Positions 1,723 to 40,813 of a stretch of DNA of 45,054 nucleotides are shown in pieces. A model generated the notes under the pieces. That model did not search any database. It worked only from the letters and a program-made list of their open reading frames with translations, and had not been told where the DNA came from. Both the position numbers and the translations under genes were made by a program. Position 1 is the first letter of the stretch. Every line of letters starts with the position of its first letter. Origin of the DNA: a phage; sequence record PZ445537.1; one strand, 5' to 3'.

Positions 1723-3669
1723 ATGCAGGCCAGCAATAACAGCGAGGCCGACATTTTTATCTATGACGAAATCGGGTACTGGGGCGTAACGGCGAAACAG
1801 TTCGTCAATGATCTCCGGGCACTTGGGGACGTCACCCACATCAACCTTTATATCAACTCGCCAGGTGGTGATGTCTTCGACGGTATTGCTATTTATAACG
1901 CGCTGAAGCACCACGGCGCGGCGATTACCGTGCATATCGACGGTCTCGCGGCCTCCATGGCCTCGGTGATTGCGATGGTAGGCAATCCGGTCATCATGCC
2001 TGAAAACACGATGATGATGATCCATAAGCCCTGGGGGTTTGCTGGTGGTGACGCGAGCGATATGCGCGACTATGCGGATCTTCTCGACAAGGTTGAATCC
2101 GTTCTTATCCCTGCTTATGCGCAGAAAACCGGAAAATCCACCGAAGAAATTGCGGCAATGCTGGAGGACGAAACCTGGATGAACGGCAGCGAGTGCCTTG
2201 AACTGGGTTTTGCCGACCAGGTGACACCATCCCTTCAGGCTATGGCCTGTATTCATTCAAAACGTATTGAGGAATTTGAAAAAATGCCAAAAAGCATTCG
2301 CAACATGATCACCCCGCCGCGCAACACTACCCAGCGTGACCCGGTTATTACCCAGCCTCAGGCACCGCAGGCAAAAACAGACCCGGCACCGGATGAAAAT
2401 GTGATCCGCGCGCAGGTGTTGGCTGAGCAGAAAGCCCGTGTTAACGCTATCGGCGATCTCTTTGCCATGTTCGGCAATAAGCACATGGAACTGCAGAATC
2501 AGTGTGTGGCCGACCCTGATTGTTCCGTCGATAAGGCGAAAGATTTGCTGCTGGCAGAACTCGGTAAAACGGCCACGCCGTCCAATAAAACCACCCAGCC
2601 GCATATTCATGCGGGCAACGGTAACTTCGTCGCGGATGGTATTCGCCAGGCACTGATGGCGCGTGCCGGGTTCGAAGGTCAGGAGCGGGATAACGTTTAT
2701 AACGGTATGACGCTGCGCGAGTATGCGCGTATGGCCCTGACTGAAAAAGGTATCGGCGTGGCCAGCTACAACCCGATGCAGATGGTTGGTCTGGCGCTGA
2801 CCCACAGCACCTCTGACTTTGGCAACATTCTGCTTGATGTTGCGAACAAAGCGCTGATTCAGGGCTGGGACGAGGCGCAGGAAACCTTCGAGCAGTGGAC
2901 CAAAAAAGGCCAGCTGTCGGACTTCAAAACGGCGCATCGTGTCGGTATGGGTGGTTTCCCTTCTCTGCGACAGGTTCGCGAAGGGGCTGAGTACAAGTAC
3001 ATCACTACCAGTGACAAAGGCGAAACCATCGCGCTTGCCACGTATGGTGAAATCTTCTCAGTAACCCGCCAGGCGATCATCAACGACGATCTGAACCAGC
3101 TTACCGACGTACCGATGAAGATGGGGCGCGCGGCGAAAGCAACGATTGGCGATCTGGTTTACGCCATTCTGACCAAAAACCCGAAACTCTCAGACGGAAA
3201 GGCGCTGTTCCATGCCGATCACAAGAACCTGAGCTCGGGCGCAATTTCTGTGGCCAGCCTGGACGAATCGCGCAAGCTGATGCGTCTGCAGAAGGAGGGG
3301 GAGCGAACCCTGAATATCCGTCCGGCCTACATGCTGGTGCCCGTCGCCCTGGAAACTCTGGCAAATCAGACCATCAAGTCGGCCAGTGTTAAAGGTGCAG
3401 ACATCAATGCCGGGATCGTTAACCCTATCCAGAACTTTGCAGAAGTCATTGCCGAACCGCGCCTGGATGAAGCTGATGCGAAAGCCTGGTATCTGGCCGC
3501 CGCGAAGGGCACCGACACCATCGAGGTCGCTTATCTCAACGGCGTCGACACGCCATACATCGATCAGCAGGAAGGCTTCACCACTGATGGTATCGCCACG
3601 AAAGTGCGTATTGATGCAGGTGTGGCGCCGCTGGACTATCGCGGCATGACCAAATCCTCTGGTCAGTAA
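1723..3669 (+). CDS. prohead protease (ClpP/S14-like) fused to major capsid protein
   Basis: First ATG after the portal stop within a longer in-frame ORF from 1375. N-terminal part has ClpP-type serine protease motifs (SPGGDV, GLAASMAS, MIHKPWG); C-terminal ~330 aa is capsid-like. One continuous frame with no internal stop, followed by a strong terminator. Confidence 0.8.
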   Translation: MQASNNSEADIFIYDEIGYWGVTAKQFVNDLRALGDVTHINLYINSPGGDVFDGIAIYNALKHHGAAITVHIDGLAASMASVIAMVGNPVIMPENTMMMIHKPWGFAGGDASDMRDYADLLDKVESVLIPAYAQKTGKSTEEIAAMLEDETWMNGSECLELGFADQVTPSLQAMACIHSKRIEEFEKMPKSIRNMITPPRNTTQRDPVITQPQAPQAKTDPAPDENVIRAQVLAEQKARVNAIGDLFAMFGNKHMELQNQCVADPDCSVDKAKDLLLAELGKTATPSNKTTQPHIHAGNGNFVADGIRQALMARAGFEGQERDNVYNGMTLREYARMALTEKGIGVASYNPMQMVGLALTHSTSDFGNILLDVANKALIQGWDEAQETFEQWTKKGQLSDFKTAHRVGMGGFPSLRQVREGAEYKYITTSDKGETIALATYGEIFSVTRQAIINDDLNQLTDVPMKMGRAAKATIGDLVYAILTKNPKLSDGKALFHADHKNLSSGAISVASLDESRKLMRLQKEGERTLNIRPAYMLVPVALETLANQTIKSASVKGADINAGIVNPIQNFAEVIAEPRLDEADAKAWYLAAAKGTDTIEVAYLNGVDTPYIDQQEGFTTDGIATKVRIDAGVAPLDYRGMTKSSGQ

Positions 3670-3691
3670 AAAACAGTCCTGACAAACAGAT

Positions 3692-3710
3692 GCCCGTAAG
3701 GGCTTTTTTT
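3692..3710 (+). terminator. intrinsic terminator after capsid gene
   Basis: Hairpin GCCCGTAAGGGC (3692-3703) followed by TTTTTTT (3704-3710); a second hairpin CAGCCCCGCAAGGGGCTG at 3722-3739 lies just before the next RBS. Confidence 0.6.
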
Positions 3711-3751
3711 ATACCTGAAACCAGCCCCGCAAGGGGCTGAATGGAGAAGTT

Positions 3752-21657: not shown

Positions 21658-22212
21658 ATGCAATATGGGTATGCAAGGGTATCAACTTTTGACCAAAATC
21701 TTGAATTACAGTTAGAGGCGCTAAATCGGTCAGAATGTGACCAGATATTTGAGGATAAAATATCCGGAGCGAAGTCAAAACGTCCTGGCCTGGATAAGAT
21801 GATGAAGTTATTGCGGCCAGGTGACACCGTCATCGTCTGGAAGCTAGACCGGCTCGGTCGATCACTCATACACCTCGTCGATTTACTGCGCTATTTCCGG
21901 GCTAATAATATTGAATTTGTCTCAATCACTGAGGGAATAAGGATCAGCACGTCAATCGGCAGATTCGCATACACAATGTTGAGTGCTGCGGCTGAGATGG
22001 AAAGAGAAAATATTATTGAAAGAACAAGGGCAGGTTTAGCCGTGGCAAGGGCAAAAGGGAGAATAGGTGGGAGGCGTCCAAAGTTAACACCAGAACAATG
22101 GGCGCAGGCTGGGAGATTAATATCAAACGGCGTGGATAGAAAACAGGTGGCAATAATTTATGATGTGGCTGTATGCACGCTTTATAAAAAATTTCCGGTG
22201 GGGCAGGCTTAA
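21658..22212 (+). CDS. serine recombinase, DNA invertase (Hin/Gin/Cin/Pin family)
   Basis: 184 aa; N-terminal catalytic motif YARVSTFDQ; RPGL…GDT-VVWKLDRLGRS block matches Hin as recalled; C-terminal HTH; sits just outside the invertible segment as gin/cin/pin do. Confidence 0.9.
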   Translation: MQYGYARVSTFDQNLELQLEALNRSECDQIFEDKISGAKSKRPGLDKMMKLLRPGDTVIVWKLDRLGRSLIHLVDLLRYFRANNIEFVSITEGIRISTSIGRFAYTMLSAAAEMERENIIERTRAGLAVARAKGRIGGRRPKLTPEQWAQAGRLISNGVDRKQVAIIYDVAVCTLYKKFPVGQA

Positions 22213-22254
22213 ATGATTAAAGGGCAGCTTCTGGATAGGCTGCCCGTCAAAGTA

Positions 22255-22518
22255 TTATCCATTTTGCCGGACAGTTGGGAATTCAGACGTCAGCCACATG
22301 TCGGATTCATCAAACATTTCCTCCAGCATACGGTTCAGCTTTTCCCGATCACTTTTGCTGGCATCACTATTTAAGCCGTTCGCCTGCATCGGCTTTACCT
22401 TCACTTCGGCATCAGGAAAAATCTGGTGCACCCGCTTCGTTAGTTCAGCCAGGATGATCTCTCTGGCCCCTTGGAGCCCTTCAACATTTCGCTTGTCATA
22501 AACCAGTTCAACAAACAT
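22255..22518 (-). CDS. dinI: DinI-like DNA-damage-inducible protein
   Basis: 87 aa from the ATG with RBS GAGAGGA (track ORF extends further upstream); acidic C-terminus and overall pattern fit the DinI family; promoter carries an SOS box. Confidence 0.7.
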   Translation of the reverse strand: MFVELVYDKRNVEGLQGAREIILAELTKRVHQIFPDAEVKVKPMQANGLNSDASKSDREKLNRMLEEMFDESDMWLTSEFPTVRQNG

Positions 22519-22576
22519 ACCGATCCTCTCATAAGTGAAAAATGCCTGTGCTTGATCTGATTTCATAAAAATACTA

Positions 22577-22592
22577 CTGTATATGTATACAG
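22577..22592. promoter_or_regulatory. LexA (SOS) box within divergent promoter
   Basis: CTGTATATGTATACAG (CTGT-N8-ACAG) embedded in the minus-strand promoter TTGACT-17 nt-TATTTT for the dinI-like gene; also directly upstream of the plus-strand ORF at 22618. Confidence 0.7.
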
Positions 22593-22617
22593 TCAATAAG
22601 CGAGTGAGGGTGCGTTC

Positions 22618-22857
22618 ATGCCTCGTCAACCGGATATTCGTGCTGCTTTTATTGCGGCCATACAGCAAAACCCGAAGGGCTATCTCTGCCTGCATACAGA
22701 CAGATTCATCACTGAACTGCAGGAGAGGCACTGGCATTTCAGCCAGGCGGATGCAAATTCATGGATCGAACGATACCAGCCAGACTTCGCCGATAAGACG
22801 ACAAACGGAAGTGAGAACCGATACTGGATCCTGCGTAACATGGGGAGGGTTTTCTAA
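22618..22857 (+). CDS. hypothetical protein
   Basis: 79-aa ORF with RBS GAGTGAGGG; divergent from the dinI-like gene across the SOS box. Confidence 0.45.
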   Translation: MPRQPDIRAAFIAAIQQNPKGYLCLHTDRFITELQERHWHFSQADANSWIERYQPDFADKTTNGSENRYWILRNMGRVF

Positions 22858-23177
22858 TGGGGTTTCCATCGCCAGCCATGGATTACCAGGAGCAGCGCAT
22901 GACGATAGATGTTATCTGCGGTGTAGATAACAACTGCCGGGTTATTGAAACTTCATGCGGCTGGGCCGTTATAAACGTCAGTCTTAAGCCAGAAGGAGGG
23001 GATACGTTGCTGGTTAGCATGGACGGGAGAAACCAGTTCGTGAAGCTAATGGGCCACGCCCTGATCACTCAAGATGGTGAAGCGATAGAAGGGGAAGCTT
23101 TGAATGACGTAATGGTACACGGCGTTCTTACACATACACTTAACCAAGTAAAAGACGATAAATCGCCTGTAATGTAG
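22857..23177 (+). CDS. hypothetical protein
   Basis: 106-aa ORF starting at an ATG that overlaps the upstream stop (TAATGG). Confidence 0.45.
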   Translation: MGFPSPAMDYQEQRMTIDVICGVDNNCRVIETSCGWAVINVSLKPEGGDTLLVSMDGRNQFVKLMGHALITQDGEAIEGEALNDVMVHGVLTHTLNQVKDDKSPVM

Positions 23178-23249
23178 CGTGTAAATGTCGGGGATTATTC
23201 CCCCATTTTTCCCCAATGATTCCCCGTACAAATTTCAAACATAAAAAAA

Positions 23250-23272
23250 CCAGCCATAAGTGGCTGGTTTTG
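23250..23272. terminator. bidirectional intrinsic terminator next to attP core
   Basis: A-run, hairpin CCAGCCATAAGTGGCTGG (23250-23267), then TTTTG; on the minus strand it lies just 3' of the tRNA fragment. Confidence 0.6.
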
Positions 23273-23282
23273 ATAATAATTT

Positions 23283-23328
23283 TGGTCGGCACGAGAGGAT
23301 TTGAACCTCCGACCCCCGACACCCCATG
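23283..23328 (-). other. attP core: 3' ~46 nt of a tRNA gene (tRNA-Pro-like)
   Basis: Minus strand reads CATGGGGTGTCGGGGGTCGGAGGTTCAAATCCTCTCGTGCCGACCA: anticodon-arm remnant, T-arm and acceptor 3' strand with CCA, but no 5' half. Identity to tRNA-Pro is from memory. Confidence 0.6.
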
Positions 23329-23384
23329 TCACTGCGTTAAAGCCGCTGCAACCCTTGTAAATACTGGTGCTACGGCATGTTTGA

Positions 23385-23400
23385 CTGTATATGCAAACAG
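23385..23400. promoter_or_regulatory. second SOS-box-like palindrome near attP
   Basis: CTGTATATGCAAACAG (CTGT-N8-ACAG) preceded by TTGACT and followed by ATTTTT, closely paralleling the dinI promoter; no obvious downstream ORF. Confidence 0.4.
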
Positions 23401-23464
23401 TGCATTTTTTGCAAAATCCGCACTATATACATCAATGAGTTACGGGTAGGTTTTTCCCCATACA

Positions 23465-24652
23465 TCACCCGGCTTTAAAGACAATTTCAGCATGAGGAAC
23501 TTCTACCCATTCAACATGATTCTGGGTATAAATTTTTGTCGATTTTGCATCACTATGGGCCATCCTTGCCTGCGGATCGATACCTTGTCTTTCGAAAATA
23601 TGAGCCGCCAGCGCTCTAATCTCGTGGAAAGTTGGCCTTTCTTTGATAGGTAATTCTGCCGCTACACCTATCCGGTCCCGCAGCTCTGAAAATGCTCTGC
23701 TCAAATAATCAGGGGCCACCTGTGTTGGGTGGTTAACTTCCTTGCTTATAGGATTGCTTCTCTTTTCCAGAAGCCGGTGAACAACATAAGGACTGGCCAC
23801 ATTGTCTCTGCTGTTGTCGATGATCTCTTTCAGGGCCCTGCCGATCGGAATGGCAACGTGTGAGGCCTCTTTGTGCTGCACTTTTTGCCGATGAATGTAA
23901 AGCGTTCCGAATATTCCAGCCTCTTCCTGATCTAACCATACACATCCGCAAACCCCTTCTTTAGGTTCCTTGATCGAGTACCGGATCCGGGAAACTTCCA
24001 GGCGCGCTTGCGTAGTTTGTATTGCAAGGTCCATTGCAGTCTTCAGCCAAGGTTCAGCAGCTGCATGTATGGCCAGGAACTGCTCCAAAGTAAGTCGCCG
24101 GCGGACCTTTTTATCGACACGCCGCATTTTTTTCCGTGTTGCAGGATTATCCATCATTAGCGATTCATCCACAGCATAAGAGAATAGCTTTTTCAGGAAG
24201 CTAACTTTTCGGTTCTGAACATTGGCCGACGATTCAGAATGGTAATTTCGTATGTAGGCATTTACGTGCTCAAGCTCAATGTCACACGCGGGTATGTTAT
24301 TAAAAAATTCTTTAACCCTGATGGCATCATTATTCCAATCGTCAAGTGTGCTTTTAGACGGCTGCTCATCTTTGATCGCTCTCTCCATAATGCGATCAAC
24401 ATGTTCAGAAAACGGGTGGGCTTCACCATTAAGCCCTCCCGATTCCCGAATTAATGAATCTATCGATGGTGTGTTTTCAGGGCGCATCCTCAGGTTATAT
24501 TCTCGGGCGATGGCGATAGCCATTACTCGATCCGAACCGAGAGTTTTCTTTTTCCCAGTTATAAGCGTGAACTTATACACGCCACGATCTTTATCAAAAA
24601 AAAGATAATCAGGAAGGTGGCGGTATTCTTTTTTTCGTGGCCTTGCTGCCAT
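23465..24652 (-). CDS. int: tyrosine integrase (lambda Int family)
   Basis: 395 aa from ATG 24652 (RBS GAGGG; track start 24658 is TTG); C-terminal catalytic region HEIRALAAH…RMAHSDAKSTKIYT fits the R-H-R-Y pattern; adjacent to the attP core. Confidence 0.95.
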   Translation of the reverse strand: MAARPRKKEYRHLPDYLFFDKDRGVYKFTLITGKKKTLGSDRVMAIAIAREYNLRMRPENTPSIDSLIRESGGLNGEAHPFSEHVDRIMERAIKDEQPSKSTLDDWNNDAIRVKEFFNNIPACDIELEHVNAYIRNYHSESSANVQNRKVSFLKKLFSYAVDESLMMDNPATRKKMRRVDKKVRRRLTLEQFLAIHAAAEPWLKTAMDLAIQTTQARLEVSRIRYSIKEPKEGVCGCVWLDQEEAGIFGTLYIHRQKVQHKEASHVAIPIGRALKEIIDNSRDNVASPYVVHRLLEKRSNPISKEVNHPTQVAPDYLSRAFSELRDRIGVAAELPIKERPTFHEIRALAAHIFERQGIDPQARMAHSDAKSTKIYTQNHVEWVEVPHAEIVFKAG

Positions 24653-24654
24653 GG

Positions 24655-24864
24655 TCAACCCTCAATTATTAACTGACGTACCGCCTGATTAACAATTGAG
24701 TCAACTCCCCACTTTTCGGTTTCATAGACAAAAACTGAACCATCTACAATCCTTCCCATGAGTAATCCGTTTTCGACCCAACGTTTAATTGTACGGTTGT
24801 CAGGAATGGAGTCTTTAGTAAACTCGCGCTTACTCCAGAGACTCGCTTTCATTAGCTTTGCCAT
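24655..24864 (-). CDS. xis: excisionase-like protein
   Basis: 69 aa from ATG 24864 (RBS GAAGGA); TIKRWVENG…GSVFVYETE resembles the Xis DNA-binding fold; stop abuts the int start. Confidence 0.65.
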   Translation of the reverse strand: MAKLMKASLWSKREFTKDSIPDNRTIKRWVENGLLMGRIVDGSVFVYETEKWGVDSIVNQAVRQLIIEG

Positions 24865-29803: not shown

Positions 29804-30499
29804 TTATCCGTGCCGTTTAACAGACTGCGACTGGCTGATCATTACCTTGCCGAAAACGTAAAATCTGTCTTCATTGGACTTATCCACTGACCACTCCCGA
29901 TATTTAGGGTTATCGGAAATGACAAGAATTTTATCTGGGATCATCTGTAATCTTTTGACATAAATTTTATCATCAAAACCAAATACATAAATCCCATCAC
30001 CATCAAACTCATTGATCGAAATATCAACGAATATCAAATCACCTGGTTCAATGGTATCAGCCATGCTGTCACCACGAACGTTAATCACTTTGACCGTATC
30101 TGGTGTTCTCCCACCAAATAATACGGCGGCTCTTTCGTTGTTGTACTCAATGGACCTGATGACATCGACGACATCACTACCTTGTATATGGCCCATGCCA
30201 GCACTGGCGCTGACATCGAGCAACTCGACTCTAAACACAGGGTCACCCTCTCCATAAGCTGGATTTTTACCACTGGATTTACATACAGTAGTTTCATTTG
30301 GAGACGGTGTAAAGAGTTCTGCCACGCTAACACCAAGTGCCTTAGCATATTTGCTAAGCGATTGTTCAGTAAATGACTTTTGTTTTCCAGTCTCAACCCG
30401 TGAGACGTTCGCACCGTCAATACCTACAGCTTCAGCAAGATCTGAAATTTTCATGCCCTTTTCGAGGCGTAATTCTCTAATGCGGTTTCCTATGTTCAT
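29804..30499 (-). CDS. cI: CI-like repressor (HTH plus S24 LexA-type autopeptidase)
   Basis: 231 aa; N-terminal HTH; Ala-Gly cleavage site (SASAGMGH); catalytic GDSM and downstream Lys (VKRL); divergent from cro. Confidence 0.9.
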   Translation of the reverse strand: MNIGNRIRELRLEKGMKISDLAEAVGIDGANVSRVETGKQKSFTEQSLSKYAKALGVSVAELFTPSPNETTVCKSSGKNPAYGEGDPVFRVELLDVSASAGMGHIQGSDVVDVIRSIEYNNERAAVLFGGRTPDTVKVINVRGDSMADTIEPGDLIFVDISINEFDGDGIYVFGFDDKIYVKRLQMIPDKILVISDNPKYREWSVDKSNEDRFYVFGKVMISQSQSVKRHG

Positions 30500-39760: not shown

Positions 39761-40813
39761 ATGAAAAATACTGTAAATATAAACAGTGTTGAGCTTGTCA
39801 ACGCTGACTGCCTGCTATACCTCGCAACCCTCCCAGATAACACCATTGACCTTATTGTTACGGATCCGCCGTACTTCAAAGTGAAACCCAACGGCTGGGA
39901 CAATCAATGGAAAGGGGATGAGGATTATCTTCGCTGGCTTGATATGTGCCTCGCACAATTCTGGCGAGTGCTAAAACCTGCTGGCAGTCTTTATCTTTTC
40001 TCCGGTCACCGCCTGGCGGCAGACATTGAGATCATGATGCGTGAGCGGTTCAACGTCCTGAACCACATCATCTGGGCTAAACCGTCGGGCCGCTGGAATG
40101 GCTGTAATAAAGAGAGCCTGCGCTCTTACTTCCCTGCAACAGAGCGCATCCTCTTCGCTGAGCATTACCAGGGGCCGTATAAACCAAAGAGCGACGGTTA
40201 CGCGGAGAAGGGAAGCGAGCTGAAGCAGCATGTAATGACTCCCCTAATTTCTTATTTTCGGGATGCACGTGAAGCGCTTGGCATATCCTCAAAACAAATA
40301 GCCGATGCGACTGGAAAGAAGAACATGGTGTCTCACTGGTTCAGCGGTAGCCAGTGGCAATTACCGAATGAATCAGATTACCGGAAGCTTCAGTCCCTTT
40401 TCACGCAGGTAGCCATCGAAAAGCACCAGAACGGCGAACTGGCAACACCACACCACCAGCTGGTGGCTATGTGGCATTCGTTGAATCGCAAGTATTCAGA
40501 GCTGCTCGAAGAGTACAAATCACTTCGGCGGCATTTCTCTGTTTCCGTATCCGTTCCTTATACCGACGTCTGGACACATAAACCCGTTCAGTTTTATCCA
40601 GGTAAACACCCATGCGAAAAACCCGCTGACATGTTGCGGCAGATCATCAACGCCAGCAGTAAGCCTGGTGATGTGGTGGCTGATTTCTTTATGGGGTCCG
40701 GTTCGACCGTGAAAGTCGCGCTGGAACTTGGCCGCCAGGCTATTGGCGTTGAACTCGAAGAGGAAAGGTTTAATCAGACGATGGGGGAAATACGGGCGTT
40801 GGCAGGGGAATAA
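39761..40813 (+). CDS. DNA methyltransferase (N6-adenine/N4-cytosine, beta class)
   Basis: 350 aa; catalytic motif VTDPPYF near the N-terminus and AdoMet motif FFMGSGST near the C-terminus. Confidence 0.85.
   Translation: MKNTVNINSVELVNADCLLYLATLPDNTIDLIVTDPPYFKVKPNGWDNQWKGDEDYLRWLDMCLAQFWRVLKPAGSLYLFSGHRLAADIEIMMRERFNVLNHIIWAKPSGRWNGCNKESLRSYFPATERILFAEHYQGPYKPKSDGYAEKGSELKQHVMTPLISYFRDAREALGISSKQIADATGKKNMVSHWFSGSQWQLPNESDYRKLQSLFTQVAIEKHQNGELATPHHQLVAMWHSLNRKYSELLEEYKSLRRHFSVSVSVPYTDVWTHKPVQFYPGKHPCEKPADMLRQIINASSKPGDVVADFFMGSGSTVKVALELGRQAIGVELEEERFNQTMGEIRALAGE

Follow-up and report, generated by a model that had tools for sequence, protein, structure and literature searches.

What controls the 99 bp that separate a dinI-like gene from two small, divergently oriented open reading frames in a temperate enterobacterial phage, and what might the flanking genes do in a lysogen? 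The locus was analysed within the window, meaning the whole 45,054-nucleotide stretch of sequence record PZ445537.1. A preliminary description, made from the letters only, had placed an SOS box in a divergent promoter at 22519-22617, and this range coincides exactly with the space from the dinI-like gene to the first of the two frames (ORF1). Window positions 22200-23300 were 100% identical to Escherichia phage Eeyore (PP925821.1, 45,057 bp), a lambda-like siphovirus that encodes a DNA invertase and has an invertible tail-fibre segment; adding 19,444 to a PP925821.1 position gives the window position. The module was carried by 34 of 5,426 complete E. coli genomes, with at least 80% of its length present in 14.

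Gene order and annotation of the locus

The genes and signals around the gap are listed below.

21658-22212, DNA invertase gene, upstream of the region under study
22217-22250, minus strand, hairpin with a U-rich stretch between the convergent invertase and dinI genes (-15.6 kcal/mol, z -2.18)
22255-22518, minus strand, DinI-family gene (ATG at 22518; 87 aa plus stop, coding part 22518..22258)
22528-22524, minus strand, Shine-Dalgarno sequence GAGGA of the dinI gene
22606-22610, plus strand, Shine-Dalgarno sequence GAGGG, 7 nt before the ORF1 ATG, read from the sequence
22618-22857, plus strand, ORF1, 79 aa, phrog_3893, predicted winged-helix protein, absent from the deposited annotation
22857-23177, plus strand, ORF2, 106 aa, phrog_3469, UmuD'-like, coupled to ORF1 through TAATG
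23246-23271, no strand, stem-loop of 11 bp, preceded by an A-run and followed by a U-run (terminator scan; -16.3 kcal/mol, z -3.55)
23285-23330, minus strand, tRNA-Pro 3' fragment forming the attP core, beside the integrase gene
23465-24658, minus strand, integrase gene, beyond attP

ARAGORN detected no complete tRNA in the window; in records of E. coli lysogens a tRNA-Pro is annotated at the junction where the attP fragment lies. The hairpin at 22217-22250 is the likely terminator of the minus transcript, a status assigned indirectly because it fails the T-run rule of the terminator scan; no ORF was found between it and the dinI stop (22255). The stem-loop at 23246-23271 is a bidirectional terminator-like hairpin, predicted to close the plus operon just ahead of the attP tRNA-Pro fragment. 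Both phiKO2 and N15 have an annotated terminator at the equivalent place, after gp23 and gp26 respectively.

The PP925821.1 annotation miscalls the locus at 22255-23177 (record 2811-3733). Its DinI call, of 160 aa (22255-22737), is over-extended across the control region and ORF1. ORF1 itself is absent, with a spurious 36-aa minus-strand ORF called in its place, and the start of the UmuD-like CDS is set at an internal Met (record 3455), so that the GFPSPA N-terminus is lost. The gene calls of the preliminary description are better than the deposited ones at this locus, and the present analysis corrects the public annotation.

A near-consensus LexA box in the gap

22575-22594, no strand, predicted LexA operator (SOS box) TACTGTATATGTATACAGTC, from consensus match, shuffles and conservation

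The LexA consensus is a 20-bp imperfect palindrome, TACTG(TA)5CAGTA, with CTG-N10-CAG arms. Closeness to it was gauged by mismatch counts and by shuffled sequence. The 20-mer TACTGTATATGTATACAGTC differed from the consensus TACTGTATATATATACAGTA at two positions (11 and 20) and had both CTG-N10-CAG arms intact. Across 100 dinucleotide-preserving shuffles of the window, 0.00 sites with three or fewer mismatches were expected; the looser pattern CTGT-N8-ACAG occurred three times in the window versus 0.47 expected. The palindrome first noticed here, CTGTATATGTATACAG, is present at 22577-22592 with exactly the letters claimed, and is imperfect, with 7-nt arms CTGTATA and TATACAG around a central TG. 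The Eeyore box is as near to consensus as the umuDC box, which suggests tight repression and late derepression.

Related loci in phages of six host genera

A tblastn search with ORF1 returned 47 phage records, with hosts in Escherichia, Klebsiella, Enterobacter, Erwinia, Cronobacter and Pantoea. Sixteen of the 47 were compared, and the counts below are given over 17 loci. Intact loci have ORF1 followed by the coupled UmuD'-like gene, and the pair lies between the tail-fibre genes and integrase/attP. A box with four or fewer mismatches stood 11-23 nt upstream of the ORF1 ATG in 14 of the 17 loci. Seven of these boxed loci carry dinI (Eeyore, Phi06_2987, Flotzy, LLS, HK225, mEp390 and HK140) and seven do not (LAU1, RothD, Midgardsormr38, Kp4882-3, vB_EhrS_59, phiES15 and AH07). 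The cassette of box, ORF1 and ORF2 recurs in temperate phages of six enterobacterial genera, with or without dinI. Relatives also have a purine-rich block where the ORF1 Shine-Dalgarno sequence sits, and the Kp4882-3 box is identical to that of E. coli umuDC. No experimental characterisation of the box-ORF1-ORF2 cassette was found in the literature searched.

The three boxless loci comprised two with a retron-type reverse transcriptase gene abutting ORF1 and one with a half-site only. The reverse transcriptase gene replaces the SOS promoter in Klebsiella phage ST15-VIM1phi2.1 (compared sequence L010, 1-1740) and in vB_EcoS-733R5 (L012, 1-1680); 733R5 holds a second, intact copy of box, ORF1 and ORF2 from position 2846 of the compared sequence onward.

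Gene content varied on the ORF2 side as well. HK225 and LLS keep dinI, box and ORF1 and are without ORF2, and a DNA invertase gene follows ORF1 in HK225. HK140 pairs ORF1 with a 129-aa HumD-type protein; its DNA identity with Eeyore (L002, 3605-3660) ends at 22886, within the first 10 ORF2 codons, which encode GFPSPA. The break suggests a recombination joint between two types of UmuD'-like gene.

Two predicted, interdigitated promoters

22552-22557, plus strand, -35 element TTGATC of P(+), as in relatives and E. coli umuDC
22575-22580, plus strand, -10 element TACTGT of P(+), left arm of the box, 17 nt from the -35
22568-22573, minus strand, -10 element TATTTT of P(-), from the promoter scan and conservation in dinI-bearing loci
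22591-22596, minus strand, -35 element TTGACT of P(-), from the promoter scan and the CAGTCAA flank

For the plus strand no promoter had been named before, and TTGATC-17-TACTGT is added here. Its hexamers and spacing are identical to those of the E. coli umuDC promoter (gtaTTGATC-17-TACTGTatataaaaacagta). Despite diverged spacers, 13 of the 14 boxed loci have a -35-like hexamer upstream of TACTGT. It is TTGATC in 12 of them, 17 nt away except in AH07 (18 nt); EhrS_59 has TTGATA, likewise 18 nt away. The hexamers and spacing shared with relatives and with chromosomal umuDC identify P(+) as a predicted SOS promoter of the umuDC type. LexA control of umuDC is established.

The minus-strand match TTGACT-17-TATTTT had been noticed at the outset. 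The scan recovered it (22596..22568), but as a bare match it is no better than chance: four promoter-like sites were found versus 4.3 expected in shuffles, so the P(-) hexamers alone prove nothing. TATTTT agrees with the -10 consensus at four of six positions. What speaks most for a genuine dinI promoter overlapping the box is its co-occurrence with dinI. All seven dinI-bearing loci read ...ACAGTCAAT, and the CAGTCAA flank is confined to them; where dinI is absent, ...ACAGTA or ...ACAGTG stands instead and the next bases are unrelated. At box position 20 the dinI-bearing loci, and only they, have a C, which departs from the LexA consensus and creates the minus-strand TTGACT. TATTTT is kept in all seven, with ataaaaatac in six and acaaaaatac in mEp390. 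These loci are closely related, with about three distinct intergenic sequences, so the association of CAGTCAA with dinI represents few independent events.

The box overlaps the core of both predicted promoters. The TACTGT of the left arm (22575-22580) doubles as the -10 of P(+), and the 20-mer fills the P(-) spacer and overlaps the P(-) -35 by 4 nt; the distance from the box to the dinI ATG is 56 nt. The promoters interdigitate, with the -10 of P(-) inside the P(+) spacer and the -10 of P(+) inside the P(-) spacer. A single LexA dimer should therefore block both, and polymerases should compete for the region once LexA is lost. A LexA operator common to the divergent promoters, as the preliminary description proposed, is supported by agreement of all the sequence-level evidence: a near-consensus box, its conservation, an umuDC-type promoter and annotated precedents.

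A phage paralogue of DinI

The 87-aa product of the minus-strand gene matched Pfam DinI (PF06183) with 78.6 bits (E 4e-22, cut-off 24.2) and phrog_189, "RecA filament binding protein DinI". Both the position and the family given for this gene beforehand were right. It scored 37.9 bits versus a cut-off of 111 for NCBIfam NF007893, the chromosomal DinI equivalog. By these scores it is classed as a phage paralogue (MsgA/DinI-like) and not as the chromosomal orthologue. Its C-terminal stretch is acidic (EKLNRMLEEMFDESDMW). DinI-family proteins occupy the RecA filament groove that is used by LexA, UmuD and lambda CI (PMC9926225). Through this common groove the phage DinI could damp UmuD or CI cleavage, or could stabilise filaments.

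ORF1 and ORF2

The two plus-strand frames had been described as coupled and of unknown function. Their coordinates and the TAATG overlap hold; the functional blank does not, as ORF2 is UmuD'-like and ORF1 is an orphan with a predicted winged helix.

ORF1 had no significant match in Pfam, NCBIfam or PADLOC. A 24-sequence ORF1 profile run against PDB sequences and Pfam gave sub-threshold matches only (best E 0.29; a forkhead winged helix at E 0.5). The family has 89 cluster representatives among 1.84 billion proteins. The AF2 model of ORF1 has a helix-strand-strand-helix-helix-hairpin topology (pLDDT 77.8), and the AF2 models (pLDDT 77.8 and 72.7) are of moderate confidence. Judged from its sequence, the predicted recognition helix is not basic, and ORF1 may thus be a protein-binding winged helix. 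Natural fusions of ORF1 with ORF2, as for a "split LexA-like repressor", were considered and rejected: the candidates P0255, P0280, P0252 and P0286 look like frameshift chimeras, with the internal MGF start retained or garbled junctions.

ORF2 was aligned with E. coli UmuD, P1 HumD, phiKO2 gp23 and HK140 gp28. Its N-terminus, MGFPSPAMDYQEQR, aligns to UmuD residues 25-38, which is the N-terminus left by the UmuD to UmuD' cleavage. Translation starts at the equivalent of UmuD Gly25, and the GFPSPAxDY arm motif is present. ORF2 matched phrog_3469 ("UmuD-like") from end to end (E 2e-47). The HumD equivalog NF051876 of NCBIfam was matched with 33.8 bits, below its cut-off of 120, and Pfam Peptidase_S24 gave no match in ORF2 at E up to 1. 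ORF2 did show the predicted beta fold of the S24 (LexA/UmuD C-terminal) domain. On its sequence it is assigned to a distinct short subfamily, phrog_3469.

The short family has lost an 11-residue loop together with Ser60, and Lys97 is replaced by V, A or G. Among 32 family members the invariant residues are M1, G2, F3, S5, P6, A7 and D9, besides a few core positions; no Ser/Lys pair is invariant. ORF2, without the self-cleavage residues, is predicted to be catalytically inert. Since Ser60 and Lys97 are needed only for self-cleavage, the dyad is dispensable in a protein that is made pre-truncated. In the host, umuD is nearly universal, being found in 5419 of 5426 complete E. coli genomes, so a partner polymerase is available. 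ORF2 lies far below the HumD cut-off and is without a Pfam S24 match, so that an accessory role for Pol V is not assured. Given the lost loop and the poor HumD scores, a binding or interfering role appears as plausible as a helper role.

The tail of the short UmuD'-like family is acidic and hydrophobic-tipped, DDxxP[VAT][IVM] (window 23150-23174), and the last residue is I, V or M in 93 of 99 members. HumD-type proteins end in EFDDCPV[IML], and host UmuD is without such a tail. The ORF2-family tail may resemble the C-terminal tip of SSB, DFDDDIPF.

Comparison with known systems

The Eeyore locus adds one phage to a known class, that of LexA-controlled dinI/umuD'-type cargo. In phiKO2 (AY374448) a lexA site is annotated between the divergent genes gp22 (DinI-like) and gp23 (UmuD-like), together with -10/-35 signals for the two genes that overlap. 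As in Eeyore, the divergent pair follows the tail genes and a terminator stands after the UmuD-like gene; Eeyore DinI is 58% identical to gp22. phiKO2 differs in having no ORF1, its UmuD-like gene following directly after the box and encoding a 127-aa protein of the HumD type. In phiKO2 the dinI promoter is shown at the far side of the box, and a second, partial box exists. The phiKO2 genes are credited to Casjens et al. 2004, as cited in PMC7556043. The phiKO2 dinI-like gene is LexA-regulated, and a Serratia phage has a LexA-box/dinI pair (PMC7556043).

P1 (NC_005856) has a LexA site annotated "in the regulatory region of lxr and humD", two divergent genes. HumD is synthesised lacking the N-terminal 24 residues, with MGFPSPA as its start. 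It has 129 aa and keeps Ser60 and Lys97, whereas Eeyore ORF2 has 106 aa, is without both and is about 28% identical. P1 further differs in being without ORF1 and in its divergent partner, Lxr (190 aa), which was not detected as DinI-like by tblastn with Eeyore DinI. McLenigan et al. 1999 are said to have found that HumD substitutes for UmuD'. The same statement is made in the P1 GenBank record.

The E. coli umuDC operator agrees with that of Eeyore in TTGATC, a 17-nt spacer and TACTGT inside the box, and both boxes are two mismatches from consensus. umuDC is transcribed in one direction and codes for a full-length UmuD that can be cleaved, with UmuC after it, whereas the Eeyore operon encodes ORF1 followed by a pre-truncated UmuD'-like protein, without a polymerase subunit, and its box also serves the predicted divergent dinI promoter. 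N15 gp26 has a box directly upstream, with TACTGT in the -10 position.

In Gifsy-1/-2/-3 the dinI homologues are LexA-controlled, stand behind a LexA box and are preceded by a terminator, and mitomycin C leads to accumulation of the protein (Lemire et al. 2011, PMC3121763). Salmonella prophage dinI homologues with LexA boxes are damage-induced (PMC3121763, PMC8072944). The Gifsy dinI gene heads an operon carrying an antirepressor that is required for induction, and the repressors are uncleaved; in Eeyore, by contrast, dinI stands alone and CI looks autocleavable. Deletion of Gifsy dinI left induction without measurable change (PMC3121763). One LexA box common to two divergent genes is also known from uvrA and ssb of enterobacteria (PMC8072944). 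The uvrA and ssb genes are chromosomal, function in repair and have a longer gap between them than the Eeyore genes; the likeness drawn here is one of layout. What sets Eeyore apart from its known relatives is the insertion of ORF1 between the operator and the UmuD'-type gene, and an ORF2 that is short and active-site-less.

Proposed regulation and its alternatives

29804-30499, minus strand, phage CI gene (HTH_3 plus Peptidase_S24, Ala-Gly, GDSM, VKRL)

The gap probably is a compact SOS control region in which one LexA dimer site sits on two overlapping, back-to-back sigma-70 promoters. The sequence anatomy, its conservation and the family and fold assignments of the proteins are shown directly; from them we infer LexA binding, transcription start sites at about 22587 on the plus strand and about 22561 on the minus strand, timing and protein functions. 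In an undamaged lysogen, LexA would occlude P(+) and P(-). Once RecA filaments form, LexA would cleave itself and both transcripts would appear. P(+) would drive the translationally coupled ORF1 and ORF2, with ORF2 made already "processed". P(-), whose -35 and spacer lie under the right arm of the box, would drive the DinI-family gene. With promoters and hairpin terminators of its own, and a place between attP and the genes for tail fibres and invertase, the locus has the make-up of an accessory cassette (moron) that would be expressed in the lysogen. Its products most likely act on the axis of RecA filament, UmuD and Pol V, where ORF2 would substitute for, or interfere with, host UmuD'.

Eeyore CI looks autocleavable by RecA*-stimulated self-cleavage. 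Induction would then need no antirepressor, and the cassette would be accessory cargo and not an induction switch. The cargo had been described as "induced with the prophage", which is loose, as LexA and CI are separate RecA*-sensitive repressors and the cassette may be switched on ahead of induction, or in its absence. As a rule LexA is cleaved sooner than CI of the lambda type, so the cassette is possibly expressed before induction, or in cells that never induce. Sequential binding at one common RecA groove has been described (Gao et al. 2023, PMC9926225).

A conceivable, though rather unlikely, extension is that ORF1 and ORF2 form a distinct SOS effector pair of temperate enterobacterial phages and not a Pol V helper. 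ORF2 would then bind without catalysis, either capping RecA filaments or heterodimerising with host UmuD/UmuD' (or with the C-terminal domains of LexA or CI). The divergent DinI would be a second competitor for the RecA groove under the same operator, and the phage would tune host mutagenesis, the checkpoint or the induction threshold.

The box could instead be the operator of P(+) alone, with dinI transcribed from another, LexA-independent promoter or by read-through and TTGACT-17-TATTTT being fortuitous. This would fit the equal frequency of promoter-scan matches in shuffled sequence and the many dinI-less loci that have the box and P(+), by which the operator belongs primarily to the ORF1-ORF2 operon; it would also fit the 56 nt between box and dinI ATG, compared with 19 nt for Gifsy dinI genes (PMC8072944). 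We nevertheless hold it to be improbable. Within the 99-bp gap, TTGACT-17-TATTTT was the only promoter-like site that the scan gave on the minus strand, and the position-20 C that makes TTGACT is found in every dinI-bearing locus and in no dinI-less one. In phiKO2, moreover, the divergent dinI is annotated as sharing the lexA site, and prophage dinI genes are LexA-controlled where tested (PMC3121763). Still further from the preferred reading, that of one LexA site for both promoters, is a palindrome unrelated to LexA: a chance AT-rich inverted repeat, or the site of another protein such as a phage repressor or an invertase crossover. The region is AT-rich and adjoins a DNA invertase gene. However, shuffles predict zero sites so near to consensus, the layout matches that of the umuDC operator exactly, and the CTG-N10-CAG arms are kept across six host genera while the flanks have diverged. 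An invertase crossover or a phage-repressor operator was rejected as the site is kept in phages that have no invertase and in phages with other immunity regions, and we give this reading hardly any credence.

As to the role of the cassette, it might be the induction trigger itself, a LexA-controlled antirepressor of the 186 Tum, Gifsy GfoA/GftA or N15 AntC type, in which ORF1, ORF2 or both would inactivate the phage repressor, for example through S24-domain heterodimers. We regard this as very improbable. Eeyore CI has a full HTH and Peptidase_S24 with the Ala-Gly site, Ser and Lys, and nothing is encoded between dinI and its hairpin. Phages whose immunity regions are unrelated also carry the cassette, which is without ORF2 in HK225 and LLS. 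The invariant ORF2 N-terminus is the UmuD' arm motif and no repressor feature. Neither hallmark of such modules was seen here, be it a cognate repressor devoid of an autocleavage domain or a small antirepressor gene co-transcribed with or fused to dinI.

If the proteins of the cassette modulate RecA filaments or Pol V, prophage carriage could change damage-induced mutagenesis, and the induction threshold of lysogens could shift under quinolones or other SOS-inducing drugs. The more useful by-product for comparative work is the conserved cassette itself, an SOS promoter of the umuDC type with an orphan winged-helix gene and an active-site-less UmuD'-like gene.

Other LexA-like sites in the window

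A LexA-like sequence with four mismatches, CACTGGATTTACATACAGTA, lies within the cI coding region at 30271-30290 and may be due to chance. A weaker box, GACTGTATATGCAAACAGTG, occurs at 23383-23402, in the interval from the attP tRNA-Pro fragment to the integrase stop; it has five mismatches and an intact CTGT-N8-ACAG, and is identical in Flotzy and Phi06_2987, both too close to Eeyore to be informative. A second strong LexA-like box, TACTGTAAATATAAACAGTG, with three mismatches, is found at 39769-39788, downstream of Q, where it overlaps codons 3-9 of an N6/N4 DNA methylase gene (ATG at 39761). Its CTG..CAG arms are kept in mEp460 and phiP27 despite changed neighbouring bases.
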